Positions 8,992 to 64,000 of a DNA stretch of 64,000 nt are shown one piece after another (position 1 is the stretch's first letter; each line of letters begins with the position of its first letter). Location of the stretch: the NCBI GenBank assembly GCA_963699135.1, contig OY969415.1:1355450-1419449 (forward strand), written 5' to 3'. The notes beneath the pieces were generated by a model. The model saw only the letters and a list, made by a program, of their open reading frames with translations, made no database searches and had not been told where the DNA came from. A program made the translations under genes and the position numbers. Source of the DNA: an uncultured Armatimonadetes bacterium (GTDB lineage Bacteria; Armatimonadota; Hebobacteria; Hebobacterales; Hebobacteraceae).

Positions 8992-11656
8992 CTACGCCAC
9001 AGGCGCCATTTGCAGCCAGTTGGAGCCGGCCTTGGTGTCTACCTTCAGGGGCACTTTCAGGTCATAGGCGCGCGACATGCACTCCTCGACGAGCGCCGCC
9101 GTCTGGCGCAGCTCCGGCTCCGGCACTTCCAGCAGCAGCTCATCGTGGACCTGGAGGATCATCTTCGCGCCGAGCCTTTGCGCGATTAGTTGCTCGCTCA
9201 CGCGCAGCATCGCCTGCTTGATGATGTCGGCCGCCGTGCCTTGCATAGGGGTGTTGATCGCCATCCGCTCGGCCGCCGCCCGCAGCGCCGCGTTGCGCGT
9301 GTTCAGCTCCGGCAGGCTTCGCCTGCGGCCGAACAGGGTGCGGACTTCGCCTGTCTCACGCGCCTGCTTGGGCATTTCCTCTATGTACTCACGCACCCTG
9401 GGGAAGCGGGCGAAGTACCGGCTGACATAGCGCGTCGCTTCCTCCCGCGGGAATGCCCATCTCCCGCGCCAGCCGGAAGTCGCTGATCCCGTAGGGGATG
9501 CCGAAGTTCACCATCTTGGCGAAGGCCCGCATCTCCCGCGTGACGTGGTCGCGGTCAACGCTGAAGATCTCCATCGCCGCGGCCAGGTGCAGATCCTCGT
9601 CCTCCTGGAAGACCTGGATCAGGTTCTCGTCGCCGGTGATGTGGGCGAGGATGCGCAGCTCGATCTGCGAGTAGTCGGCGGAGAGCAGCAGATGACCGGG
9701 CAGGCCGGGGACGAAGGCGCGGCGGATCTCCGATCCCAGCTCGCTGCGAATCGGGATGTTCTGAAGGTTCGGATCGCTGCTGCTCAGGCGCCCCGTCGCC
9801 GTCACCGCTTGGTTCAGCGATGTGTGCAGCCGGCCCGTCCCGGGGTTCACCAGCCGCGGCAGCGCGTCCACGTAGGTGGACTTGAGCTTCGTGATCTCCC
9901 GGTACTCCAGAATCCGGGCGACGATCTCCTGCTCCGACAGCCCCGCGAGCACATCGGCGTCTGTCGAGAACCCGGTCTTGGTGCGCTTGGTCTTGTCGGG
10001 CGGCAGCTTCAGCTTCTCGAACAATATCCGCTGGAGCTGCTTGGGCGAGCCGATGGTGAACTCCTCCCCCGCGAGCGCGTAGATGTCCCGCTCCAGCTCG
10101 GTGACTCTCCCGCCGAGGCGGGCCGACAGCGCCTCCAGCGCGGGCACGTCGATGGCGACGCCGATCTGCTCCATCTCCGCCAGCACGGTGACCAGGGGCA
10201 TCTCTAGATCGCCGAAGACACTTCGCAGTTCCAACTGGTCGAGCTGCGGCTGAAGCGTGCTCTGCAGCTCCCGGATCTCGCGCGCCTCGGCGGCCGCCCG
10301 GCTGGGCGCGGACCACTCGCCCAGCGATAGCTCCGCCTGTCCCCCGGTCTGTAGGTGATCGAACGCGGCGGAGTTGAGGTCATGCCTGCGGGCGGGATTC
10401 ACCAGGTAGGAGGCGATCATGGTATCGAAGCTCACGCCGCCGAGCGCTACCCCGCGCCGCGCCAGCAGGATGATGCTGCGCTTCAGGTCGTGGCCCACCT
10501 TGGAGATGGACGGCGACCCCAGCGCGGCCTTCAGCGGCGCCAGCAGCGCGTCGAGTTTGGTCTTGCCTCCGAGCACGATCGCAGGCTGGTCGCCCACCAG
10601 GAAGCAGAGGCCATGCAGTTCCGCCCGCATCGCCGACGCCGGGTCGGCCAGCGGATGCAGGATGAACTCCTGCGCCGTGCCCAGCTCGGCCGCCAGCTTC
10701 TTGGCCTGGTCGACGCGCTCGATCAGCCGGTGCTCTTCGCTCACTTCCACCCGCGCCGGCTCCAGCTTTGGGATCAGCGTGCGGAAGTCGAGGCGGCGGA
10801 AGATCTCCGCCAGGCGCGCCGCCTCCGGGGGACGTCGCCGCAGCGCCTCCTCATCCAGCTCGATTGGCAGATCACGCACGATGATCGTCAGGTCCTTCGA
10901 GCGCCGCGTCAGTTCGGTGTAGGCGGTCAGCGCATCGCCGATGCGCGGCGGCTTCACCTCGTCGGCATGGGCGAGGACGTTCTCCAGGTCGCCATACTTG
11001 ACGACCAGCGCGGCCGCGGTCTTCTCCCCTATCCCCGGCACGCCGGGGATGTTGTCGCTGGTGTCGCCCCGCAGCGCGCGGAAATCCGGCAGGCGCTCGG
11101 GCGGGAAGCCGTATCGCTTCATCACCGCCACGGGATCGTAGATCACGGTGTCGCTTATGCCGCGGCGAGTCATCATCACGGAGACGCGGTCGGACACGAG
11201 TTGGAGTTCGTCGAGATCGCCGGTGACGACCAGCACGCGGCAACCGGCCTGCTCCCCCTTTAGCGAGAGCGTGCCGATGATGTCGTCGGCCTCATAGCGC
11301 TCCATCGAGTAGATGGGGATGTGCATGGCTTCGAGAATCTCGTAGGCCATGCCGATCTGCGGCCCCAACTCCGCCGGCATCTGCTGGCGGGTGGCCTTGT
11401 ACTCGGGGTAGCTCTCGTGCCGGAAGGTGGGAGTGGGGAGATCGAAGGCCACCGCCACCAGATCGGGCTGCTCCTCCTCCAGAATCTTGAGGAGCATGGT
11501 GGTGAAACCATAGGCCCCGTTCGTCACCTCGCCCTTCGCGTTCGTCAGCGGGGGTAGGGCGAAGAACGCGCGGTAAAGCAGGCTGTTGCCGTCGATCAGC
11601 AGCAGCTTGCGAGGCGCGGCATCCGGCGCTGGGTTTTGCTCGGGCGGATCGATCAC
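8992..11656 (-). CDS. polA: DNA polymerase I (5'-3' exonuclease, 3'-5' exonuclease-like and polymerase domains), interrupted by one frameshift near 9415
   Basis: The 755-aa ORF 9389-11656 ends inside the palm domain (..FGIPYGISDFRLAREMGIP). The 134-aa ORF 8992-9396 carries the PolA C-terminus (RAAAERMAINTPMQGTAADIIK..QVHDELLLEV). At the junction the sequence ATTCCCGCGGGAGGAAGCG contains one extra C in a CCC run. Removing it gives an uninterrupted, PolA-like IPREEATRYVSRYFARFPRVREYIEEMPKQ. Confidence 0.85.
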
Positions 11657-12868
11657 CTGTCCGCCGACTCGACTTCGCGCTGCAGCGCGCCCTGGGCGAG
11701 CCGAGCTGCCAGTTCGTCGTAGAGCAGCCCGCCGCTCACCGTCACCTTGCTGCGGCTGCCGGGCCCCGCGTTTCCGAGTAGCCAGCGCAGCAGACCGGGC
11801 TGCCCGACTTCCTTCGCCTTCGCCCTGCCGGGGATGCCCCCCAGCCGGCCGGCCGCGGCGAGCGCGTCCTGCATCCCGCCGAGTTCGTCCACCAGCCCAT
11901 TCGCCTTCGCCTGCTGGCCGCTGTAGATGCGGCCGTCGGCGAGCTTGCGCACGCCTTCGAGCGTCAGGCCCTTGTCCTTGCGGCCGTCGGCGACGGCCTT
12001 GATGAACTGCTGGTGGGTTTCGGTCAGCAGCTTGTCCATCAGGGCGCGCACCTCGGGGGAGATCGGGCCGAAGGGCGACATCATGTCCTTGAACTTGCCC
12101 GCCTTCAGCGTCTCCATCTTGACGCCGATCTTGCCGAAAAGGCCGGAGATGTCCTGATGCTCGGAGATCACGCCGATGCTGCCGGTGATGGTGGCCGGGT
12201 CGGCCCAGATCTCGGTGGCGGGAGCGGAAATGTAGTAGCCACCGGAGGCCGCCACGTCGGCCATGGAGACTACGACGGGCTTGTGCTTACGGGCGCTCTG
12301 GACGGCAGCGTAGATCTTCTTGCGAGGCCGCGGCCGAGCCGCCGGGGCTGTTCACGCGAATCAGGATCGCCTTCGCCTCCCCGTCATCCGCGGCGTCCTG
12401 GATCTGCTGCACGATATCGTCCGACCCGCTGGCGGCGCCGCCGAAGGGCGAGTAGCCTCCCGGCCCGGCGATGATGATGCCGTCGACGCGCACCAGAGCC
12501 ACGCGGTCTCCGCCCACCTCCAGGCCCTTCATCCCGCCGGCGGTGCCGATGAGGCCCAGCACCCCTATCACCAGGATGATGATCACTAGCAGGCACCCGG
12601 CGAGGCCGCAACCGCAGCCCCAACGCCAGGCCGTGTTGCGCTTCTGGGGCGGGGGCGGCGGGTAGTAGTACGGAGGCGCGGCCGGCGGCGGGGGTGGTGG
12701 TGGCGGGACTGACCCGGCCGTTGGCGGCGGTGGCAGGGCCGCGGGCGGAGGTGGCGGCGGCGCCACGGGTGGGGCCGCGGTCTGCGTTGGCGCGGGGGCC
12801 TGCGCTTCCGGCGTCTCGGCAGCCTGATCTTCGGTTGGCGGTTGTGGCGGCTGTTCGGAGGTCACGTT
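11653..12868 (-). CDS. sppA: Signal peptide peptidase SppA (protease IV, 36K type). It has a Pro-rich N-terminal region and a TM helix. One frameshift lies near 12275.
   Basis: ORF 12287-13063 carries ..VALVRVDGIIIAG..IVQQIQDAADDGEAKAILIRVNSPGGS. ORF 11653-12264 carries MADVAASGGYYISAPA..GSIGV.. and the rest of the SppA domain. A plausible GTG start at about 12868 is preceded by GGAGAG. The gene overlaps the polA start by 4 nt (ATGA). Confidence 0.7.
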
Positions 12869-13005
12869 TCTCTCCTGGTGCGAGTGGGGCCGCTCGCCTT
12901 GACACGGCCAATCGACCGACATTATACTGCGTTTGCGTGAAATGCGTAGGGCAGGCCCGCCCCGAGATTGCCGAGGGGAGCGATTCTCCTGCCTGGCAGA
13001 GCCGT

Positions 13006-13091
13006 GCCGGTGTGGCGGAATGGCAGACGCGCCTGACTCAAAATCAGGTGTCCGCAAGGGCATGGAGGTTCGACTCCTCTCACCGGCACCA
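13006..13091 (+). tRNA. tRNA-Leu (anticodon CAA), class II with a long variable arm and an encoded 3' CCA
   Basis: The sequence is GCCGGTGTGGCGGAATGGCAGACGCGCCTGACTCAAAATCAGGTGTCCGCAAGGGCATGGAGGTTCGACTCCTCTCACCGGCACCA. It has a 7-bp acceptor stem and the anticodon loop CTCAAAA. The T-arm is GGTTCGACTCC. Confidence 0.85.
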
Positions 13092-13112: not shown

Positions 13113-13754
13113 TCAGTCGCTGCTCCCGCCTGCCCGGAGGTAACTCATCGGCTGGCGCCTGATCTTGTCAGCCCAGCGTTCGCCGCACTGCCTGCAGGTA
13201 ACCACCGTTGCGACTAGCGCGACTCTCCCCGGCTGTTGCTGACCCGGCACGACAGGCCTGCCGAGCACTTGCCGCTTCTTCGCCAGATCAGAGCTGCCGC
13301 AGTTGGGGCAGTTCTTCCGGCCCTCGAGCATCTTCAGCCCCGGTCTGTCCTTGGTTACAGGACGCTGCGTGGTGAGGTCCAGAGCATAGCCGCAGTTCCT
13401 GCACCGTAGCACTAGCGCCAGTAGCTTCGTTTTCCTGTCGACTGTCTGCCATTCCATGGTGACGTGGAGGCTGCCGCACTTGGCGCAGGCGCGGGCGAAG
13501 AGCTTGCTGCGCTGGGGCGGTCTGGATCCGCGAGTGGGCACTTGTGGGGACCGCCCCCGATCGACTAGCGACGGCAGCGCAGGCTGCGCCCCGCAGGAGC
13601 ATCCCTCTTGCCGCGCCGCGCGCGGCTGCGACTCCCCCAGCAACCGGTGGTGTCCGCGCAGAGGCCGGGCGTCCGGCCACAGGGCCAGCGCGAAGATGCT
13701 GATGAGCACTCCGGCGCAGAACACCCACTGGACACTTGCACAGAGGCGTGCCAT
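13113..13754 (-). CDS. Hypothetical protein with an N-terminal TM helix and two zinc-ribbon motifs
   Basis: 213 aa. The CxxC pairs are CAKCGS..CRNCG and CPNCGS..CRQCG. I recognise no conserved family. Confidence 0.4.
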   Translation of the reverse strand: MARLCASVQWVFCAGVLISIFALALWPDARPLRGHHRLLGESQPRAARQEGCSCGAQPALPSLVDRGRSPQVPTRGSRPPQRSKLFARACAKCGSLHVTMEWQTVDRKTKLLALVLRCRNCGYALDLTTQRPVTKDRPGLKMLEGRKNCPNCGSSDLAKKRQVLGRPVVPGQQQPGRVALVATVVTCRQCGERWADKIRRQPMSYLRAGGSSD

Positions 13755-13965
13755 CGGTTGACCTAGCCCCCTACGAAACGCGAGCTCCGACGTCTAGGTC
13801 TCAACGGCCAGCGGGGACACAAGAAGGGGAACCAAAACCGGCTCAACGGAGCGGCTGGATGGTGCAGCGATACTACTTCGAATCGGGCCGCAAAGCAAGC
13901 CCTGGGGGGTGAACGATGGCCTGGCCACAGACTGCCGGAGCAGCGGGAACAGCAGGAACAGCGGA

Positions 13966-14030
13966 GGGGCTTCGGCAGTAGAACTACCGAAGGAGCGTGA
14001 GGGAGGGGCTTCGGCAGTAGAACTACCGAA
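13966..14030. repeat. Two tandem copies of the hairpin unit GGGGCTTCGGCAGTAGAACTACCGAAG (internal GTAG)
   Basis: The copies lie at 13966-13992 and 14004-14030. Related units (..tagaactaccgaagcaacgg..) recur at about 19585. Confidence 0.8.
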
Positions 14031-14626
14031 GCAACGGGGAGCCGCGGAAATGCACGCATGAAAAGTGGCGTTTTCGCAGATGCGGCGCGATGTTCCACGT
14101 GGAACATTTCGGGGATTTCCGGGGTGTTCACATTGACGGAATCGGAGGGTCGGGTGGGAGGCGGGCGGGAGAGAGGGGGTGAGGGGGCGGAGGGTGGGAA
14201 TTGGCGTAAGTAAGCAAGGTATTGATAGTACAAGAGGCAAGCTGAAATGGAGTCGATTTCCGTACGCGGGGATTTCGCGATTTGCCCTAGAAGGCGGCTG
14301 GATGGGTCCAGGAGAGGGGCGCGAAATGCGTCTCTTTCGCGGGAACGCCGTATTATGAGCTTTTTCGGGGGAGGGCCGGACTATTTCACGTAGGGCAAGC
14401 CAGAGGGGTCAGAGGGGAAGATAGGGGCATTTCGGGGTCTGAGGGGAGGTGCGCGCAGGGGGGCATAGGAGTGCACGAGATGCGTGGTTCGCGGGGCGAG
14501 ATGTGCGTGTTTTCGGTGGCTTTGGGCCGTGCATTTCGGGGGTGGGAAGGGGGCGGAATCGGGGTGTACTAAGGGGTTAGTACAGTGGGTTTGGGCATAG
14601 GCATAAGTGGAGGGAACGGGAACAGC

Positions 14627-14690
14627 ACGGCAACGGCGGTAACCGCAGATTACGCAGATTGCGCAGATTGGCGCCCGCCGATGGCGGGCG
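14627..14690. repeat. Repeat unit acggcaacggcRgtaaccgcagattacgcagattgcgcagatt followed by a GC hairpin. A second copy lies at 17978-18041.
   Basis: The two copies match exactly or nearly so. Each contains a 3x gcagatt mini-repeat and a hairpin (cgcccgccGATggcgggcg, or ggcccgccTAACggcgggc in the second copy). Confidence 0.8.
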
Positions 14691-14768
14691 AAACGGCAAG
14701 GGCGCTCTTGGGGGGGCGGAGGTGGGGGACGCGGGATCGCCGCCCTCCCGGCGGCGGGCGGGCAGGGA

Positions 14769-16091
14769 GGGCGTGATTCATTGTAAAGTAGCAAGACCTC
14801 CTTGACAGTCGTCTAGCAGGACATGGTTGACACTTTTGATCTGGGTAGTCGCAGCGCCAGCGCGCTGGTATCGCGGGTGCGCAAGTCCAGCTCCCGGATC
14901 GCCATCGCCCGGTAGCTGACCACCACCAGGTGTTCCACCTCCTCCACGCACACCGGCTCGCCCGCCAGCGCCTCGCACACAAACCAGCGTCGGCCCCGCC
15001 ACTTCAGGCACCCCTGGCTGTTGAGACGTTGCACCACTCCGGTGTCATAGACCCAGGGCGCTGGCTGCTCCCGGTAGGGCCGGAGCTTCTGGAACGAGTA
15101 GACCTGGCTGGGACACCGCATCCCCAGCGCCTCGTGGGGACGCGCCTGGTTGTACTCCCGGCGGAACCGCGGCGCCCCTTGCCGCCAGCTCTCCAGGTCC
15201 GGCGGCAGCCCCTCATGCCAGGTGCGCGCTTTCAGGGTGCGGTGGAAGCGCTCCACCTTCCCCCGGGTCTGGGGGTGTGAGGGTCGGCCGTAGAGGAGCT
15301 CGATATCCTGGTTCAGCAGCCACACGCTCAGCCGGGTCAGCCCGTAACCGTTGGTGGTCGACCACCACGGCGCCCCCCGATCCATCAGCAGCGCCTCCGG
15401 CACTCCCGGCTCCCGAAAGAGCCCTCCCAGCGCCTCCTGGACCCCCTCCAGCGCGACGCTGGGCAAGGGCCAGCGCCCCACCAGATAGCGGGAGTGATCA
15501 TCGATCAGGCTCAGCGGGTAGCACCAGCCCTGCGCCAGCGCATACTCTCCCTTGAAGTCCATCTGGTGCAGCTGGTTGGGCGCCTCCCGCACAAACCGCC
15601 CCTGCGCCTGGCCCCGTACCGGCCCCGCCATCAGTCGCCCTTGCCGGCGCAGAATCCGGTTGATACTCCACTCCGCCAACGGCACCCCTTCGCGCGCCAG
15701 CAGCACCTGCAACTTCCGGGCTCCCCACCCATACGCCTCCCGCAACGCCACCACCCGCGCCTCCAGTGCCGCTGGGGTCTGCGTCGGCGAACGCCGGGGC
15801 CGGCGGGAGCGCTCCTGCAGCCCGCCGCAGGAGCCACCCTCCTCCAACCGTCTCCGCCAGCCGTAGCCGGTCTGCCGGGAGATCCCGTACTCCGCACACA
15901 ACTGCGCAAAGGGAGCCACCCGCTGCTTCGCCCGCACCAGGAACTCAATGCGTTGATCCATGACACGCGTATCCTTCCAGGGCATGGGCCTCACCTCGCT
16001 GCTAGCAGACCCTTCCGCCCTCCCAAGTGTCAAGGATGTCCTGCTATATCAGTGTCAAGGATCTCATGCTACCGTACAATGAATCACGCCC
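14769..16091 (-). mobile_element. IS481-family insertion sequence (about 1.3 kb) with roughly 55-bp imperfect terminal inverted repeats, inserted into a REP-like hairpin
   Basis: The left end is gggcgtgatTCATTGTAAAGTAGCAAGACCTCCTTGACAGTCGTCTAGCAGGACATGGTTGACAC. The reverse complement of the right end is ..GTGTCAAGGATGTCCTGCTATATCAGTGTCAAGGATCTCATGCTACCGTACAATGAatcacgccc. The flanking halves gggcgtgat / gaatcacgccc together reconstitute the hairpin that is seen intact at 29853-29872. Confidence 0.75.
14813..16033 (-). CDS. IS481-family transposase (DDE/rve integrase with an N-terminal HTH)
   Basis: Intact 406-aa ORF. It has an N-terminal HTH (FAQLCAEYGISRQTGYGWRRR) and a DDE integrase core (..HQMDFKGEY..LIDDHSRY..). 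It also carries the IS481-like C-terminus (FHRTLKARTWHEG..YNQARPHEALG). Confidence 0.8.
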   Translation of the reverse strand: MTLGRAEGSASSEVRPMPWKDTRVMDQRIEFLVRAKQRVAPFAQLCAEYGISRQTGYGWRRRLEEGGSCGGLQERSRRPRRSPTQTPAALEARVVALREAYGWGARKLQVLLAREGVPLAEWSINRILRRQGRLMAGPVRGQAQGRFVREAPNQLHQMDFKGEYALAQGWCYPLSLIDDHSRYLVGRWPLPSVALEGVQEALGGLFREPGVPEALLMDRGAPWWSTTNGYGLTRLSVWLLNQDIELLYGRPSHPQTRGKVERFHRTLKARTWHEGLPPDLESWRQGAPRFRREYNQARPHEALGMRCPSQVYSFQKLRPYREQPAPWVYDTGVVQRLNSQGCLKWRGRRWFVCEALAGEPVCVEEVEHLVVVSYRAMAIRELDLRTRDTSALALRLPRSKVSTMSC

Positions 16092-16210
16092 CTACGTACG
16101 GCGACGGAACAGGAACGACGAGATTGCCACGCGCGCCTCGGCTCCGGTTGGAGCCGAGGCGGCTCGCAATGACAGAGATGGGCGGCAACGGCCGCCCCTC
16201 GCACTGAGAG
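16092..16210. repeat. Composite repeat built from units gattgccacg-[hairpin]-ctcgcaatgaca. Variants recur at about 19627-19682, 25056-25110, 29906-29965 and 18048-18100.
   Basis: Contains cgacgagattgccacgcgcgcctcggctccggttggagccgaggcggctcgcaatgacagagatgggcggcaacggccgcccctcgcactgagagcgg. The inner hairpins GGCTCC-GGTT-GGAGCC and GGGGCGGC-AACG-GCCGCCCC are enclosed by ATTGC/GCAAT. Confidence 0.75.
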
Positions 16211-16215
16211 CGGAG

Positions 16216-17952: not shown

Positions 17953-18178
17953 CCTGCGGCGGGAGAGTAACGGCGAAACGGCAACGGCAGTAACCGCAGA
18001 TTACGCAGATTGCGCAGATTAGGCCCGCCTAACGGCGGGCGGAGGGGTACGGTGAGATGGCCACGGGGCGGCAACGGCCGCCCGTCGCGATGCCACCCGC
18101 ACGCTGCGAGCGCGGGTGGCAGGCCGGGGTGATGGGTGTGGCGAAGACTGGGAGTATACCTTTGGGGACAGGGTGGCT

Positions 18179-19309: not shown

Positions 19310-19690
19310 GGGGAGGGAACGGCGTTCACCGCAGAGACGCAGAGGGCGCAGAGAACGGCAACGGCCTGCCCGCCAGTATCCTGGCGGGCAGAGCCCGCAA
19401 TTGGGGGCGACCGGCGATTCGCCCCCAAGCCCCCCACTCGCCTTTGGCGTTGCTGACAAGAGCGGAGGGTAGCAGCGAGAGAAGGTAGCAGAAGGCAAGT
19501 CACGGGAGGCGACGAGGGCTCCCGCCGAACGGGACCGCGGGGGCTTCGGCAGCCCCTAAGTCCGCCGTAGGCGGACCGGGGTGGCGGCACTTTGCCTAGC
19601 CATAGAACTACCGAAGCAACGGCAACGACGAGATTGCCACGGGGCAGCGGCAGGCCGCTGCCCCTCGCAATGACAGATAGGCGCGTTCAC
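19310..19690. repeat. Intergenic mosaic of hairpin repeats
   Basis: Contains CTGCCCGCCAG-tat-CCTGGCGGGCAG; GGGGGCGA-ccggcgat-TCGCCCCC (a compensatory variant of the 17775 module); GTCCGCC-GTAG-GCGGAC; and the unit gattgccacggggcagcggcaggccgctgcccctcgcaatgaca. Confidence 0.75.
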
Positions 19691-29645: not shown

Positions 29646-29995
29646 CATTGCCCGGCACGATTGTGCCGGGCAGAAGCCTGCTGGGGGACGACTGGCCGTT
29701 CGTCCCCCAGACCCCCTCACCGGCTTCTGGCCTCCTGGCGGAAGTATGGGGTGGCAGCGGGAGCGATGAAGTAACGAGCGCAATGACAGTGAGGGGATGG
29801 CAGGACCAAGTCGCCGGAGGCGACTGGAGGTCCTGCCGAACGGGAGGAGGGAGGGCGTGATGAATCACGCCCCTACGGGAGGGGGTTCGGCAGCGAATTA
29901 CCGAAGCAGCCAACACCGAGATTGCCACGCACGCCCTGGCTCCGGTCGGAGCCAGGGCGGCTCGCAATGACAACTGGGGCGATGGGGAGAGTGCG
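29646..29995. repeat. Mosaic repeat block: copy 2 of the roughly 215-bp composite (29646-29847), an intact REP-like hairpin GGGCGTGAT-gaa-TCACGCCC-ctac (29853-29876), and gattgccacg..cgcaatgaca units (29906-29965)
   Basis: Direct identity with 17736-17952, with the IS flanks at 14769-14777 and 16081-16091, and with the unit at 16113-16160. Confidence 0.8.
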
Positions 29996-30002
29996 GACGG
30001 CG

Positions 30003-30965
30003 CTACGCGACGTAGTCGCGGATGAGCAGGAGGTTCTCGGGAGGGGTCTCGTAGGGGACGGCGCCGGTGCCGAGGAGGAGGTTGGGCTGCCCGGCGGCAA
30101 GGGCGACGACCTCGTCGACGGCGCGCAGTATCTCTGACTTCGTGCCTCGGGTGTACACCCTTGGGTCGAGGTTCACCCTAACCTTGACGTTGGGGTGAGA
30201 GGCCATCCGCCTGAGAAACTCCCGGCGGTCGGTTTCGGCGGGGCAGATCACGAAGTCGGTGCCGGTCTCGAGCATGGGTTCGATGATGGGCGCGGTGTCG
30301 CCGCCGATGATGCAGGGGACGGCGTGCCCGGCGGCGGTCCCCACCTGCTGCATGGTTGCCTTGAGCGAGGGCAACTCGACCTCGCGGAACTGAGTTGGCG
30401 AGAGCAGGGGCGGGGCGGCGGCGGATTCGAAGAAGGCGACGTCGAGTCCCGCGGCGATGACGGCCGCGGCGAAGGCGACTTGCCCGGGGACGAGTAGAAG
30501 CAGGAACTCGCGGGCGCGGGCGGGGTTAGCGCCACGGAAGTCAGAAGCTCATCCAGCCCGAGCAGGCTGGAGGCGATCGAGAAGGGGCCGCTCACCGGCA
30601 GTCGGACATCGGCCTCGGGGAACTCGTCCTTCAGTCGCCGGGCCACGCGGATGCCAGGGGGAGGCGGCCCGCGGTCGCCGGGTCGAAGGGCGCGAGGTGC
30701 AGCGCCTGCTCGAGGGAGTCGAACACCGGCTGGGTGACGGCAGGGATACCATTTCCCTTGGGTGATCGACGCGCGCCCCGTAGGCCTCGGCTTCGAGGTT
30801 GTAGATGTCGATCCCGATCACTACGGGGAAGTGGCGATAGCGCAGATAGGCCTCGCGGTGGGCCTGCACGAGCAGTTCCTCGCTGCGCGATACCTCCCAC
30901 GGCGTGCGGCCGATCAGGCGGGCGGCGTGCTCGTAGACTGAGATCGAGAAGGGGATCCTCGCCAC
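30003..30965 (-). pseudogene. URO-D/MtaA-like family protein (second paralog), broken by at least 3 frameshifts
   Basis: The fragments 30549-30980, 30631-30978, 30248-30646 and 30003-30374 carry consecutive URO-D-fold segments. These run MARIPFSISVYEHAARLIG.., ..ARRLKDEFPEADVRLPVSGPFSIASSLLGLDELL.. and ..AGHAVPCIIGGDTAPIIEPMLETGTDFVICPAETD.. Confidence 0.55.
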
Positions 30966-31207
30966 ACTGAACCTCCACAAGAGATTACTGCGCGGGGTCG
31001 CGTCCTCCCTCGCTCCCGCCGCCTGTCTGACTAATGATACGCGGCGGGGATCGATGTGCCTCTATTGTCACAGGAGTCGAGGCATCGTCGCCTAACCTGC
31101 CGCTTGCCTGTAGCAATATTGCCGCGGAGTGAGCACGCTGGGCGCGGAAGAGCGCTCTCTGACATGCGAGAGCCAGCACCCGGCGCCGCGAGACCAGGAG
31201 GAAACAG

Positions 31208-31588
31208 ATGCCAGCGTTTCTCGATCCGTTCCCGGGGCTGGTTCCCCGGAAGATGACGAAGTCGGAGTTGGTCAGGGCCCTGCGGCTGAACCTCGCGGCG
31301 GAACTGGAGGCGGTGCACCTCTACACCTCGCACGCGGAGGCCGCGGATGATCCGCTGACCAAGAAGATGCTGCTGGACGTGGCCGACGAGGAGAGGGTGC
31401 ACGCGGGTGAGTTCCTGGAGCTGATCCGGAGGCTGGCGCCGGAGGAGCAACAGCTTCTCGACGAAGGCAGCCAGGAAGTGCAGGCGATGGCGGCGGGCAT
31501 GGCGGCGGAGCCGCCGCCGGCCGCGACGATGCCCGACCTGACGATGACAGTCGGCAGCCTGCGAGAGGCGCCGAAGGAGGGTGAGTGA
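31208..31588 (+). CDS. Encapsulin cargo: ferritin-like protein (EncFtn/Flp type) with a C-terminal encapsulin targeting peptide
   Basis: 126 aa. It has two E-x-x-H motifs (EAVHLY, EERVHAGE) typical of encapsulated ferritins. It has a flexible Ala/Pro linker and the C-terminal TVGSLREAP, which matches the TVGSL/GSL cargo-loading consensus. Confidence 0.75.
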   Translation: MPAFLDPFPGLVPRKMTKSELVRALRLNLAAELEAVHLYTSHAEAADDPLTKKMLLDVADEERVHAGEFLELIRRLAPEEQQLLDEGSQEVQAMAAGMAAEPPPAATMPDLTMTVGSLREAPKEGE

Positions 31589-31589
31589 G

Positions 31590-32411
31590 ATGCGCTACCT
31601 ACCACGCGAAGCCGCGCCCATCGGCGACGCAACCTGGGGGATGATCGAAGAGGCGGTGGTGGGGCCGGCGAAGATGCAGCTCGCGGGCCGACGGCTGCTC
31701 GACATCCAGGGGCCGTTCGGGCTCGGGATGAGAGTGCTGGACCACAAGGAACGGGAGACGGCGGCCGAGGCGAGCTTCGGCGACGCGAAGGCGAGGATGT
31801 CGGCGCCGGAGACGACGCCGATTCCGTTGATCTACTCGGAATTCACGCTGTCCATCCGCGAGATCGCGGCGGCGGAAGAGCGGGGCAGCCTGCTAGACCT
31901 CGATGCTCCCGCGAAGGCCGCCATCGCTTGCTCGCGGCTCGAAGACAATCTGATCTTCGGCGGCAACAAGGAGCTGCGGATCGATGGCCTGATGACCGCG
32001 CCGAAGGCGTCGAAGGTGAAGCTCGGCGACTGGGAGCAGATGGGCCAGCCGATGGAGGACCTGATCAAGGCCGCGAACGCGCTGGACGCGGCCGGCTTCC
32101 CGGGCCCCTACAGCGCGGCACTCGCGCCGTCGCTGTTCAACGCGCTCTACCGGCGGTATGAGGAGGCGAGCCTGACCCAGCTCGAGCACGCCCGGCAGTT
32201 GATCACGGGAGGCCTGGTGAAGGCGCCGACGCTGGCGTCGGGCGGTGTGGTGCTGGCGTCGCTGCGGCACTTCGCCTCGCTGGTGATCGGCCTGGACATG
32301 ACGCCGGCGTTCGTCGGGCCGACACCGACAGGCTACCAGTTCGTGATCATGGAGAGCATCACGCCCAGGATCACGGTGCCGGAAGCGATCTGCGTGCTGA
32401 CTGGGAAGTAG
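31590..32411 (+). CDS. Family 1 encapsulin nanocompartment shell protein (linocin M18-like, HK97 fold)
   Basis: 273 aa. It matches the Thermotoga encapsulin pattern: GRRLLDIQGPFGLG versus GRKFVDVEGPYGW, IPLIYSEFTLSIREI versus LPLIELRATFTL, EDNLIFGG versus EDEVIFRG, and GPYSAAL versus GPYTLV. An AAGGAGG ribosome-binding site lies 9 nt upstream of ATG 31590. The stop of the cargo gene overlaps this start region. Confidence 0.8.
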   Translation: MRYLPREAAPIGDATWGMIEEAVVGPAKMQLAGRRLLDIQGPFGLGMRVLDHKERETAAEASFGDAKARMSAPETTPIPLIYSEFTLSIREIAAAEERGSLLDLDAPAKAAIACSRLEDNLIFGGNKELRIDGLMTAPKASKVKLGDWEQMGQPMEDLIKAANALDAAGFPGPYSAALAPSLFNALYRRYEEASLTQLEHARQLITGGLVKAPTLASGGVVLASLRHFASLVIGLDMTPAFVGPTPTGYQFVIMESITPRITVPEAICVLTGK

Positions 32412-61000: not shown

Positions 61001-61147
61001 CCCGGACCTTAGGCAGTCAGATGCGGGGTTGCGTCGTCGGGTTGCTGCCGGAAGAAGGCGGGCAAGCCCCCACCCTATGTGAGGTTGGAGGATAGAGATA
61101 GATCCCCCCCACCCGGGGTGGGCGCAGGGCGGGAAGGGTGGCGTTAG

Positions 61148-61175
61148 CCCGTAGGGCAGGAGCTTGTCTCCTGCC
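61148..61175 (+). repeat. REP element, 5' copy flanking the RAYT gene: GTAG tetranucleotide plus hairpin GGCAGGAG-cttgt-CTCCTGCC
   Basis: cccGTAGggcaggagcttgtctcctgcc. The exact reverse complement occurs at 61690-61717. Confidence 0.8.
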
Positions 61176-61192
61176 ACTGAACCTGAGACGCT

Positions 61193-61675
61193 ATGCTCTA
61201 CCGAAGGCTTCCTCGGTTCGATCTGCCGAACGCAACGTACTTCATCACCTCCTGCACCGAAAGGCGCCGCAAGCTTCTCTCACGCCCTGACTTCACCGAT
61301 CTGTTGGTCAGCCTCTACGCGGACCTGCGCGATCGCGGTGACATCGCGCTCCATGGCTACGTCATCATGCCGGACCACTACCACGTCGTCTTCGCGCTCC
61401 GAGAGGAGAGGTTGGTGAGCATGGCGGTCCGGAAGGTTCACGGTCCCTTTGCGCGTCACTACCGCCGCGCGGTCGGCCCGACAGATCGGGTGTGGCAGCG
61501 ACGTTTCCGGGATCATGTGGTGCGGGACGATGCAGACTGGCGCACGAAGATGGAGTACCTTCACGCCAATCCGGTGCGGGCCGGATTGGTGGAGGATCCG
61601 ATCGAGTACCGGTGGTCGAGCGCGCGTTTCTGGCTGACTGGCACCGGGCCGGTGGCGTGCGACCCGGCGTGGTGA
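61193..61675 (+). CDS. REP-associated tyrosine transposase (RAYT), IS200/IS605-like TnpA
   Basis: 160 aa. The HuH motif is MPDHYHVV. The catalytic-Tyr region is near the C-terminus (IEYRWSSARF). The size and the flanking inverted REPs are typical of RAYTs. Confidence 0.75.
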   Translation: MLYRRLPRFDLPNATYFITSCTERRRKLLSRPDFTDLLVSLYADLRDRGDIALHGYVIMPDHYHVVFALREERLVSMAVRKVHGPFARHYRRAVGPTDRVWQRRFRDHVVRDDADWRTKMEYLHANPVRAGLVEDPIEYRWSSARFWLTGTGPVACDPAW

Positions 61676-61689
61676 GGGGAAGGAGGGAT

Positions 61690-61717
61690 GGCAGGAGACA
61701 AGCTCCTGCCCTACGGG
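61690..61717 (-). repeat. REP element, 3' copy flanking the RAYT gene (inverted relative to 61148-61175)
   Basis: ggcaggagacaagctcctgccctacggg is the exact reverse complement of 61148-61175. Confidence 0.8.
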
Positions 61718-61786
61718 CCTATGCGCAGGCCGCCATCCCGGCCGCCGATGGTGGCCTAGGGACTCCTGCCCAACGGGCTCACCCCC

Positions 61787-62032
61787 CTACGGCTTGCACA
61801 CCTTGCACGCCGTGTACCCCTTCTTGACGGCGTCCTGCCGGGTGATTTCGGTCTTCTTGCTCTTCTTGATGGTCCGGCAGGTGGTGCGGTGGTACTTCTT
61901 TCCGCTCTTGGTGATGTAGACGATGTCTTTGACGGGCTTGGTGGTGGGGCGCGGCGGGGCGGAGTGGCCGAGTGACGCAAAGGCGAGCATCGCGAGCATC
62001 ACCAGGACCAGGGCCAGTACTAGTTGCTTCAC
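61787..62032 (-). CDS. Small secreted Lys/Cys-rich protein (signal peptide plus a KKYH..C..C..CKVCKP motif)
   Basis: 81 aa. The signal is MKQLVLALVLVMLAMLAFASLG. The mature part has 4 Cys and is Lys-rich. Confidence 0.45.
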   Translation of the reverse strand: MKQLVLALVLVMLAMLAFASLGHSAPPRPTTKPVKDIVYITKSGKKYHRTTCRTIKKSKKTEITRQDAVKKGYTACKVCKP

Positions 62033-62050
62033 AGCCCCCTCTTTCCGAGG

Positions 62051-63040
62051 CGATTAGGCCTCCACGAAGTGCCCGAACCCTCTCAGCTTCTGGTATCTCG
62101 CGGCAACCAGCTCGTCGACGGGCAGGGCCCGCAGGCGCGCGAGGTTGCGGGTGATGGCTTCCTTGAGCGTCTGGGCAGCGGCCGCGGAGTCTTTGTGGGC
62201 GCCGCCGAGGGGTTCGGGGACGATCTCGTCGACCGCGCCGAGCGAGAGGGTCTGCTTCGCCGAGAGCCGCAGGGCTTCGGCCGCCTCGGGGCCGCGGCTC
62301 GGCGTCGCGGCCGAAGGCGTTGAGGATGACCGCGCACGACTCCGGCGGGATGACGGAGTAGATGGCGTGCTCCAGCATCATCACGTGGTCGCCCGACGGC
62401 GAGCCCGATGGCGCCGCCGCTGCCGCCCTCGCCGATGATGGTGACGACGATCGGGGTGCGGAGCGCGGACATCAGCATCCATGTTCTCGGCGATGGCGTT
62501 GGCGATGCCCCGCTCTTCCGCCTCCAGGCGCGACTCGGCCGCGGGGGTGTCCACGAAGCTGATCACGGGACAGCCGCATCTTCTCCGCCAGCTTCATCAC
62601 GCGGGCCGCCTTGCGGTAGCCCTCGGGCCGGGCGCTGCCGAAGTTGCGGAACTGCCGCTCCTTCACGTCCCGGCCCTTCTGGTGGCCGACGACCGCCACC
62701 GCGCTGCCCATCCAGCGGAGGCCAGTCCGGCCACGATCGCGGGGTCGTCGCCGAAGCGCCGGTCGCCGTGCAGCTCGACGAAGTCGCTCGAACATGGCGC
62801 CGATGTAGTCCAGCGTGTAGGGCCGGTCCTGGTGACGGGCGAGCAGCACGTTATCCCATGGCGGTTAGCATCGTGAAGACCTCACGCGTGACCTGCTCCT
62901 GCCGTGCGCTTGAGCGTCGTTCGACCTGCGCCTCGAGCCGAGCCCGCCGCTCGTCGCTGATGCTCGGCGGCGGTCAGCAGGCGCTCCATTTTCTGGATGT
63001 CCGCGTCCACCTCGCGCAATTGCCGGTCGAAGTGGAAGCC
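62051..63040 (-). pseudogene. accA: Acetyl-CoA carboxylase carboxyltransferase alpha subunit (AccA) with at least 3 frameshifts
   Basis: The fragments carry these motifs. ..FHFDRQLREVDADIQKMERLL.. and ..[17 protein letters not shown].. are one set. ..[38 protein letters not shown].. is another. ..[27 protein letters not shown].. and ..SALRTPIVVTIIGEGGSGGA..MMLEHAIYSVIPPESCAVIL.. follow. The C-terminus is ..GFGHFVEA*. They lie in several frames. Confidence 0.65.
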
Positions 63041-63042
63041 AC

Positions 63043-63902
63043 CTACCCATCGGCTCGTCCCTCCTCGTCGGCCTGCCGCTCGCCGTCGAGCGAGAGGATG
63101 CGGAGCAGACGGACCAGCAGCGGGCGCAACTCCTCGCGGTTGACGACGGTGTCGATCATCCCGTGCTGGTGCTGGAACTCGGTGGTGTGACTGCCGGGCG
63201 GCAGCTTGATCTTGAAGGCTTTCTCGATCACCCGGGGGCCGGCGAACCCGACCAGCGCGTTCTGCTCGGCGATCGTCACGTCGCCCAGGGAGGCGAAGCT
63301 GGCGAAGACGCCGGCGGTGAGGGGATCGGTGGCGACGATGAGGAACGGGATGCCCGCCTGGTGCAGGCGGCCGACGACGGCCGCGGTCTTCGCCATCTGC
63401 AGCAGCGAGACGATGCCCTCCTGCATGCGGGCGCCGCCGGAGCAGGCGAAGGTCAGCAGGGGCACGCCCCGCGCGATGGCGCGCTCGGCGGCGCGAGCGA
63501 ACTTCTCGCCCATCACCGCGCCCATGCTGCCGCCCAGGAAGCGGAAGTCCATGACCGCCAGCACCACGGGGAGGCCGTCGAGGGCGCAGTCTCCGCAGAC
63601 CAGCGAGTCGGAGAGGCCGCTGCGGCCCTCGTCGTCGGACAGCTTCTCGGGGTAGCCGGGGAAGTGCAGCGGGTCGCTCGACCTCAGTCCGCGGTCATGC
63701 TCCTGGAAAGTGCCGCTGTCGGCGGTGATGGCGATCCGCTCCCGCGCTGCAGGCGGCGGTGGTGGCCGCAGTGGCGGCAGACGTACAGATCCTCCTCCAG
63801 CTCCCGCTGGTAGAGCATCTCGCCGCACTTCTGGCACTTGGCCCAGAGTCCGTCGGGCACGCCATTGGGGAGCGGCGATCTGTTAGCGCGCTGTTCGCTC
63901 AA
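63043..63902 (-). CDS. accD: Acetyl-CoA carboxylase carboxyltransferase beta subunit (AccD) with one frameshift near 63800
   Basis: ORF 63684-63902 carries the N-terminal zinc ribbon (CQKCGEMLY..CRHCGHH). ORF 63043-63837 carries the CT domain (..MDFRFLGGSMGAVMGEKF..FACSGGARMQEGIVSLLQMAKT..GFAGPRVIEKA..). Confidence 0.75.
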
Positions 63903-64000
63903 AGTGTGTCTCCTCGTTCCTGGTGCGTCCTGTCTGGTTCGACTGCTGCTTCTGGGAGGATCGGGGGACGGCGTTCCCGGCCGGCGCCCAGAGGTGAGAG

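Follow-up and report, generated by a model that had tools for sequence, protein, structure and literature searches.

A predicted chromosomal parS site in a composite, repeat-rich intergenic spacer of an uncultured Armatimonadetes bacterium

We analyzed a gene-free spacer (positions 13755-14777) in a 64-kb stretch of DNA, called the window below, from the 4.66-Mb genome of an uncultured Armatimonadetes bacterium (contig OY969415.1). The spacer is most probably (roughly 80%) a composite intergenic region containing one clearly functional DNA element, a chromosomal parS site. The remainder is not one device; it is an untidy mix of promoter, repeats, G-rich DNA and an insertion sequence (IS). The site is marked by a perfect 18-bp palindrome, ATGTTCCACGTGGAACAT, at 14090-14107. 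This is the longest perfect palindrome in the 64 kb, and palindromes of at least 14 bp appeared in only 2.4% of local dinucleotide shuffles. The initial annotation of this DNA had singled out the palindrome as the salient feature of the stretch, a choice that our analysis bears out. The palindrome is real and perfect as described, but the position given, 14092-14109, was off by 2.

The core of the palindrome, TGTTCCACGTGGAACA (14091-14106, unstranded), is the predicted ParB nucleation or loading site. It matches the experimentally defined parS2 and parS3 of Pseudomonas aeruginosa at 16 of 16 positions (PMC4368675) and is identical to the parS of P. putida, so that all of these sites share the same perfect 16-bp palindrome (PMC4368675, PMC7022226). 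It is one base away from the Myxococcus consensus, fits the general parS consensus TGTTNCACGTGAAACA (PMC7022226) and, as a 16-bp palindrome, matches tGTTNCACGTGAAACa; relative to the B. subtilis-type consensus, it differs only at the position that gives it full symmetry. The window contains exactly one such site, even when up to three mismatches are allowed. The 18-mer found no match with ≤3 mismatches in 100 shuffles, and the chance expectation of the 16-mer is about 6e-6 per 64 kb by arithmetic from base composition. Half-parS sites (GTTCCAC) were not enriched in the window. Many species carry clusters of chromosomal parS sites, whereas only one is present in the 64 kb here; in P. aeruginosa, a single parS site suffices for segregation (PMC4368675). 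The P. aeruginosa parS3 and parS4 are intergenic, as is the site described here. Unlike the characterised chromosomal parS sites, this one is predicted from sequence, and its host lineage is poorly studied; our literature search found no paper treating parS in Armatimonadetes.

The same site was found beside partition genes in other bacteria. Public metagenome contigs contained 22 stretches with the exact 23-mer GTTCCACGTGGAACATTTCGGGG, far more than expected of a private sequence, and these were searched by tblastn with B. subtilis Soj and Spo0J (approximate sequences, used only as probes). At least 11 of the 22 have a parA-parB pair just downstream, separated from the 23-mer by 48-277 nt in 10 of them and by 1.1 kb in one more. 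These loci (L089, L091-L095, L102 and L104-L107) share the whole 23-mer, with TTTCGGGG as its flank. What recurs in the parS loci of unrelated bacteria is thus not the 16-bp core only but also the flank ATTTCG(GGG). Some parA-parB loci have a longer palindrome, CCCCGAAAT-parS-ATTTCGGGG, and several carry two or three parS copies. At L094 4668-4699, from an unrelated bacterium, parS lies inside a 32-bp perfect palindrome, CACCCCGAAAT-GTTCCACGTGGAAC-ATTTCGGGGTG; L092, L093, L104 and L105 are listed with it as having either the 32-bp palindrome or two to three parS copies within ~100 nt upstream of parA. In contrast to the parA-parB-linked loci, the window and its close relatives have no adjacent parA or parB, and the site stands alone in a repeat-rich spacer. 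Because the palindrome is identical to proven parS sites and the same sequence is used beside parAB operons elsewhere, it is, as judged from its sequence, a canonical chromosomal parS of the ParABS type. The kind is well known; what we describe is an element of ordinary type in a composite, repeat-rich spacer.

If the site works as in characterised ParABS systems, a ParB dimer would recognise the 16-bp palindrome through its helix-turn-helix (HTH) domains. With CTP bound, ParB forms a closed clamp that slides away from its binding site, and here it would be expected to slide onto the DNA flanking 14091-14106. The resulting partition complex would be moved by ParA and would load SMC, and the spot would thus act as the centromere of the chromosome. 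In studied systems, ParB dimers nucleate on parS, spread onto the flanks and form the partition complex on which ParA acts, and SMC loading at parS depends on ParB (PMC7022226). An intergenic parS with bound ParB can also damp neighbouring promoters (PMC7022226); ParB at 14091-14106 could do the same to the zinc-ribbon promoter 190 nt away. We infer both the binding of this organism's own ParB at 14091-14106 and the consequences for segregation. Recognition of the site turns an odd spacer into a landmark, the place at which ParB should nucleate and SMC should load. Sites of this type usually lie in the origin-proximal domain of the chromosome, and this one probably flags that domain in a genome from a poorly characterised lineage. 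It is also a ready target for chromatin immunoprecipitation sequencing (ChIP-seq) or for fluorescent ParB/parS tagging.

Coding signal was absent from the spacer. GC content by codon phase was flat across 13760-14840 (spread ≤0.14); the same analysis gave a spread of 0.3-0.57 in the flanking genes. The long minus-strand open reading frames (ORFs) at 13763-14233 and 14381-14794 are Pro-rich and of low complexity, and are artefacts of the C-rich strand. Neither matched Pfam, the spurious 156-aa ORF at 13763-14233 had zero homologs among 5.8 billion proteins, and six-frame reading of 13755-14777 revealed no hidden gene. The homologous stretch of a related short-read metagenome contig, L096 (601-1440), showed no coding periodicity either, which makes a frameshifted gene in the spacer unlikely. 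The GC content of the spacer is 0.58-0.64, compared with 0.667 for the 64-kb window, and its GC skew is the strongest of the window (up to +0.46). These results agree with the initial annotation, which had described a gene-free, locally less GC-rich region between a zinc-ribbon gene and an IS. Both flanks were confirmed: the zinc-ribbon ORF lies at 13113-13754 on the minus strand, and the transposase of the IS is of rve/HTH type. The suggestion of a decayed gene remnant was not supported, given the lack of codon periodicity in the spacer and in L096 and the lack of protein homologs, and the frameshifted gene that the initial annotation had allowed for is unlikely.

The absence of coding signal also bears on the proposal that the region is a replication origin, or a decayed or frameshifted gene, which we consider extremely unlikely. 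A large, AT-richer spacer with strong skew would suit this proposal, as would the frameshifted genes found elsewhere in the assembly (polA, accA, accD). However, codon periodicity was absent from the region in both genomes, and no protein homologs were found. As for an origin, the DnaA box TTATCCACA with ≤1 mismatch occurred 0 times in the 64-kb window against ~3 expected, dnaA and dnaN were absent from the window, and the GC skew was uniformly positive without a switch. A bacterial oriC would have a cluster of DnaA boxes with an AT-rich unwinding element, usually near dnaA, and the window has no such boxes. The initial annotation had offered four suggestions for the spacer, and "origin-like element" came closest, in that parS is usually origin-proximal; the DnaA-box and GC-skew check proposed with it gave zero boxes and no skew switch, and the region is not itself an origin.

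Several points weigh against a chromosomal parS in a composite spacer as the explanation of this region. With the approximate Spo0J and Soj queries, tblastn detected no ParA or ParB gene in the 64-kb window; a cognate ParB for 14091-14106 is thus assumed, its gene not being among those of the window. Nothing in the window marks proximity to the origin: the skew is uniformly positive, and there is no DnaA box or dnaA. An exact pattern that included parS served to retrieve the relatives, and the palindrome is therefore conserved in them by construction. The segment has a tRNA gene and a rare zinc-ribbon gene beside it, which makes an origin from a foreign element possible. The plus strand folds somewhat better than shuffles (z = -4.2), and G-runs are clustered above composition; neither is explained by the parS/composite model.

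The position beside the tRNA gene raises the alternative that a foreign element (an integrated plasmid, a phage-plasmid or an island at the tRNA-Leu gene) left the palindrome behind as a parS or operator and that it is not the chromosome's own centromere, or that the palindrome is the operator of an unrelated dimeric regulator. The palindrome lies ~1 kb from the tRNA-Leu gene and beside an IS, and the adjoining zinc-ribbon gene is rare, with weak Lar-like similarity and an atypical codon signal. A 20-mer of the site was also present in 10 viral contigs, but these matches were not homologous beyond the motif and were not accompanied by ParB. No integrase and no tRNA 3'-end repeat were found, and comparison with plasmids gave no similarity beyond one trivial 52-nt match. 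In relatives, the segment sits among housekeeping genes (accA/accD, pheA), and the palindrome is of the canonical chromosomal type, not a plasmid-specific centromere. We therefore regard a foreign or unrelated operator as quite unlikely. An integration module at tRNA-Leu was likewise rejected, as the tRNA 3' end is not repeated elsewhere in the window.

The better-than-shuffled folding supports another alternative, that the region encodes a large structured non-coding RNA with the palindrome and the G-rich motifs as parts of its fold; the initial annotation had also suggested a structured RNA. The folding z-scores were -4.2 for the plus strand and -2.2 for the minus strand, some predicted pairs persist between the window and L096 through several G-C/G-U changes on one side of the pair, and ~700 nt are alignable between relatives. 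However, at the gathering threshold only the tRNA-Leu passed an Rfam search of the whole window, and at E ≤10 the sole match in the region was a spurious plant miRNA model (23 bits against a threshold of 60 bits). RNAalifold on two sequences, the window and L096, found double changes in 7 of 146 predicted pairs, and the program selects for exactly such pairs. The segment evolves at about the synonymous rate between relatives that are only ~10% diverged. No conserved promoter or terminator that would convince was found, and one would not expect an RNA hairpin to match parS at 16 of 16 positions. A structured RNA thus appears very unlikely: the Rfam/Infernal scan proposed to detect it returned no family in the region, the z-scores are moderate and the divergence is about synonymous.

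We compared the DNA around the chromosomal parS with that of related genomes. A parS-bearing non-coding segment of ~700 nt (14002-14707, unstranded) is 80.7% identical to positions 646-1363 of L096. Four contigs proved to be true homologs: L088 and L096, which belong to one organism (99.9% overlap), L098, and L099 (extended by L119). The relatives derive from the sediment metagenomes Ga0315273, Ga0315284 and Ga0315288. Including gaps, 14002-14714 is 78% identical to L096, compared with 81-87% at the third codon positions of four genes that both genomes share. Of the runs of identical columns, that over the hairpin of repetitive extragenic palindromic (REP) type (41 nt) alone exceeded the 95th percentile of shuffled runs; the run over the parS block (29 nt) fell just under it, and two others (30 and 27 nt) were also not above it. 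The segment diverges at about the synonymous rate, indicating weak constraint. Selection on the ~700-nt segment was accordingly rejected, its divergence being about that of third codon positions, and the apparent conservation over ~700 nt reflects the closeness of the relatives. Scans of viral contigs for three conserved blocks found nothing. Exact matches to proteins of the window led to nothing but short Logan contigs, on which the genes are arranged as here, and synteny via PolA in GTDB genomes reached, as nearest relatives, Armatimonadota metagenome-assembled genomes (~61% identical) on short contigs; this PolA similarity is also what placed the lineage in our analysis. Three independent short-read contigs, L088, L098 and L099, break off within the G-rich tract, 40-110 nt rightward of parS, and only L096 reads through. 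These breaks could reflect a repeat-induced assembly break or a drop in coverage in G-rich DNA.

The address of the segment differed among these relatives. In L096 the order is window 62427-61784 (reverse complement), the parS segment, and window 61718-61146 (reverse complement), which places the segment between a small-protein gene and the gene of a REP-associated tyrosine transposase (RAYT); in the window the segment lies 48 kb away. The flanks in L088/L096 match window 61146-63999 at 88-91%, and the orthologous site in the window (61719-61783) holds only 65 nt of REP-like sequence and no segment. Partial copies of the segment in L098 and L099/L119 have two further left neighbours, genes for an unannotated protein and a sugar-phosphate isomerase-like protein; orthologs of the latter gene, which adjoins the segment in L099, were found at 69-76% identity and lack the segment on their downstream side. 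The homology shared with the relatives has its left edge at a family C hairpin and its right edge at a family D repeat (both described below). Four contexts in four lineages, together with one demonstrably empty orthologous site, might mean that the position of parS is plastic.

These observations would fit a mobile parS: a non-coding cassette of ~0.7 kb, with REP-like repeats at its ends, would carry the site and be moved or exchanged between intergenic sites, possibly by REP/RAYT-associated recombination, and the position of the centromere would then be fluid among close relatives. Such a cassette would extend the reading as a chromosomal parS rather than replace it, and we put it forward tentatively, as possible but doubtful. 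The evidence comes from four lineages only, three of them represented by contigs that break inside the segment, and neither target-site duplications nor terminal inverted repeats were seen at the junctions. The same picture would arise if paralogous parS regions had been lost differentially, or from ordinary indels in spacers rich in repeats. Moreover, the identity of the segment (78-81%) is below that of the flanks, which fits old paralogs as well as mobility. That a centromere on a ~0.7-kb G-rich cassette bounded by REP-like hairpins changes its intergenic address between genomes ~10% diverged is, on present evidence, rather unlikely. REP/RAYT-associated recombination may reshuffle the position of parS; our literature search found no paper that connects parS and REP/RAYT. 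Of these results, only the change in address of the parS segment among close relatives could prove novel, and, if confirmed in complete genomes, it would bear on how freely bacterial centromeres move.

The initial annotation had also drawn attention to a reiterated motif in the spacer. Exactly three copies of CATTTCGGGG are present (14105-14114, 14428-14437 and 14532-14541, plus strand), with none elsewhere in the window, and the first overlaps the right end of the palindrome. Some 10-mer occurred three times in 5.2% of dinucleotide shuffles of the region, and with one mismatch allowed the window held 3 matches against 5.0 expected. In the closest relative, L096, copies 2 and 3 are already altered (GTATTTGGGGG and GAATTTCGGGG). 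No larger, degenerate internal duplication was detected behind the three copies, as local alignments were no better than those of shuffles. The reiteration is thus present as described, but it is marginal against the local composition and copies 2 and 3 are not kept in the relative. Both the reiterated motif and the ~700-nt "conservation" are cautionary cases, for which local composition and the close kinship of the genomes compared account.

A cluster of G-runs (14147-14771, plus strand) has a G content of 44% and contains 6 of the 20 plus-strand G-quadruplex-type motifs of the window. By regular-expression count, the 6 motifs in the region compare with 1.7 expected in local shuffles (p ~0.001). 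L096 keeps only 1 of the 6 motifs, yet its G-richness is maintained at 43%. A G-quadruplex function was rejected as a candidate, since the clustering seen in the window has no counterpart in conserved motifs of L096. On the reading of a centromere that changes its address, the G-run cluster might influence ParB sliding, or replication and transcription through the site. Frameshifts in the assembly suggest indel errors, and the lengths of G-runs are therefore not to be over-read. The G-rich middle (~14040-14610) is single-copy in the window and was treated as weakly constrained or unconstrained spacer around parS. Across the whole window, G-quadruplex-type motifs (four runs of G3+ separated by N1-7) number 20 on the plus strand and 1 on the minus strand, the latter within the IS. 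Intergenic spacers are G-rich on the plus strand regardless of gene orientation.

Several repeat families surround the G-rich middle. On its left, Tandem Repeats Finder identified 2.9 copies of the short tandem repeat GGAACAGCA (13937-13962, unstranded). This is followed by two tandem copies of the family C hairpin repeat GGAGGGGCTTCGGCAGTAGAACTACCGAAG (13963-13997 and 14002-14036, plus strand), which are 94% identical to each other. Further family C copies lie at 29877-29908 and, in part, at 19603-19622, and 100%-identical copies occur at three places in the relative L098. On the right, a family D repeat (14613-14705, plus strand) contains a tandem CGCAGATTG x3 (14644-14670) and a hairpin, GCCCGCC-GAT-GGCGGGC (14673-14689). 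It is 81% identical to 17978-18052 and related to 19315-19352. Beyond the IS, the remainder of the spacer (16092-16215, unstranded) contains a family A unit, CGAGATTGCCACG-hairpin-CTCGCAATGACA (16114-16174), 87% identical to 29912-29972, with related copies at 19612-19685.

The spacer is bounded on its right by an IS481-family element (14778-16082, minus strand). Its transposase ORF (14813-16033) gave Pfam matches to rve, rve_3 and HTH_32/28/23 and a weak match to LZ_Tnp_IS481, and its imperfect terminal inverted repeats start TCATTGTA...TACAATGA. A DDE transposase of rve type, an N-terminal HTH and terminal inverted repeats, the features that mark this family, are all present; the arms of the inverted repeat (14769-14835 and 16025-16091) are 67 nt long and 84% complementary. 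The element splits a REP-type palindrome into a left half, GGGCGTGAT (14769-14777), and a right half, ATCACGCCC followed by CTAC (16083-16095), both unstranded. An uninterrupted copy of this palindrome, GGGCGTGATGAATCACGCCCCTAC, lies at 29852-29876. Comparison with that empty copy leaves the duplicated target bases ambiguous. The IS481-family element is thus inserted in the loop of the REP palindrome. Its position exactly between the arms of a GTAG-headed REP palindrome (GGGCGTGAT, ATCACGCCC-CTAC) may indicate REP-targeted insertion. IS1397 and ISKpn1 target REP palindromes in the bacterial interspersed mosaic elements (BIMEs) of enterobacteria. The arrangement here, an IS between two REP palindrome arms with an intact copy at 29852-29876, is similar. 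However, IS1397 and ISKpn1 are of the IS3 family, whereas this element is of the IS481 family (rve DDE) and is a single instance of such a placement. The left end of the IS carries a promoter-like site (CTGTCA, 17 nt, TACAAT; 14780-14808, minus strand) that faces out of the element towards the parS spacer; no other sigma-70-like match was seen in 13600-14900.

Repeat families A-E recur in the spacers at 16.1, 17.6-18.1, 19.3-19.7 and 29.8-30.0 kb, as well as in related metagenome contigs. The RAYT gene is an ORF of the Y1_Tnp type at 61193-61675, with PF01797 on record and an ortholog in L096 that scores 1e-8, and it is flanked by inverted, GTAG-headed palindromes of 31-32 nt (61146-61177 and 61688-61718). 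GTAG adjoins the palindrome in family E (the reverse complement of GGGCGTGATGAATCACGCCCCTAC) and in the RAYT-flanking repeat (CCCGTAGGGCAGGAGC...); a GTAG head was not evident in families A, C and D. The features by which REP/RAYT systems are recognised were thus found, namely many intergenic palindromic copies in mosaics, a RAYT gene with inverted REPs and a GTAG-type head. The resemblance to known REP/BIME systems with RAYT lies in the short imperfect palindromes, the intergenic mosaics and the location of the RAYT gene between inverted REPs. In contrast to those systems, the families here have lineage-specific sequences, and the action of the RAYT on them is putative. The RAYT gene is the likely source of the hairpin repeats dispersed in the spacers of the window.

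The left anchor of the locus is a tRNA-Leu(CAA) gene (13006-13091, plus strand), detected by ARAGORN and by the Rfam tRNA model (58.7 bits). Between it and the spacer lies the zinc-ribbon gene, which encodes a 213-aa protein on the minus strand with weak zinc-ribbon/Lar-like Pfam matches, all below the cut-off. The protein has one homolog family only (P0002; loci L081-L086), with 41% amino acid identity, and the GC3 signal of the gene is weaker than that of neighbouring genes. Upstream of the gene, 13755-13908 can be aligned with the corresponding DNA of the homolog loci L081-L086 (72% nucleotide identity), and the similarity reaches ~155 nt past the ATG. This stretch contains a predicted sigma-70-type promoter (13870-13898, minus strand) with a -35 TTGCTT at 13898-13893, a 17-nt spacer and a -10 TAGTAT at 13875-13870. 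The corresponding DNA of the homolog preserves the two hexamers as well as the distance between them (TTGACT ... TAGTAT in L082). Transcription is predicted to start near 13862, and the predicted 5' untranslated region (5'UTR; 13755-13862, minus strand) carries a conserved block, CCGTTGAGACCTAGAYGTCG, and a possible hairpin over the start codon, whose fold is no better than that of shuffles (z = +0.8). The left 145 nt of the spacer are thus probably the promoter and 5'UTR of the divergently placed zinc-ribbon gene. The "regulatory hub" proposed in the initial annotation is true of these ~145 nt, but in that trivial sense only. Over the promoter and the ~108-nt leader (13755-13908; L082 1108-1347), 72% DNA identity compares with 41% amino acid identity for the protein; promoter and leader are better conserved as DNA than much of the coding sequence of the gene. 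The leader block CCGTTGAGACCTAGAYGTCG can pair with the start-codon region.

Some other genes of the window appeared broken. An ORF of 258 aa (12287-13063), upstream of SppA (peptidase S49, 11653-12264), loses codon periodicity from ~12560 and overlaps the tRNA-Leu gene; it is probably only partly real, or sppA is also frameshifted. polA is split by a frameshift at ~9390 into 9389-11656 and 8992-9396. In the region of accA and accD (62066-63050 and 63043-63902), accA is fragmented over at least 4 frames, with 25 indel columns relative to the L088 ortholog, and accD is split. Two adjacent URO-D-like ORFs (30003-30980) also look split. The broken housekeeping genes look like long-read indel errors rather than real pseudogenes. 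Finally, at 31208-32411, a small ferritin-like protein with the tail ...LTMTVGSLRE... overlaps the start of a Linocin_M18 (encapsulin) gene, and the two look like an ordinary encapsulin cargo-shell pair.

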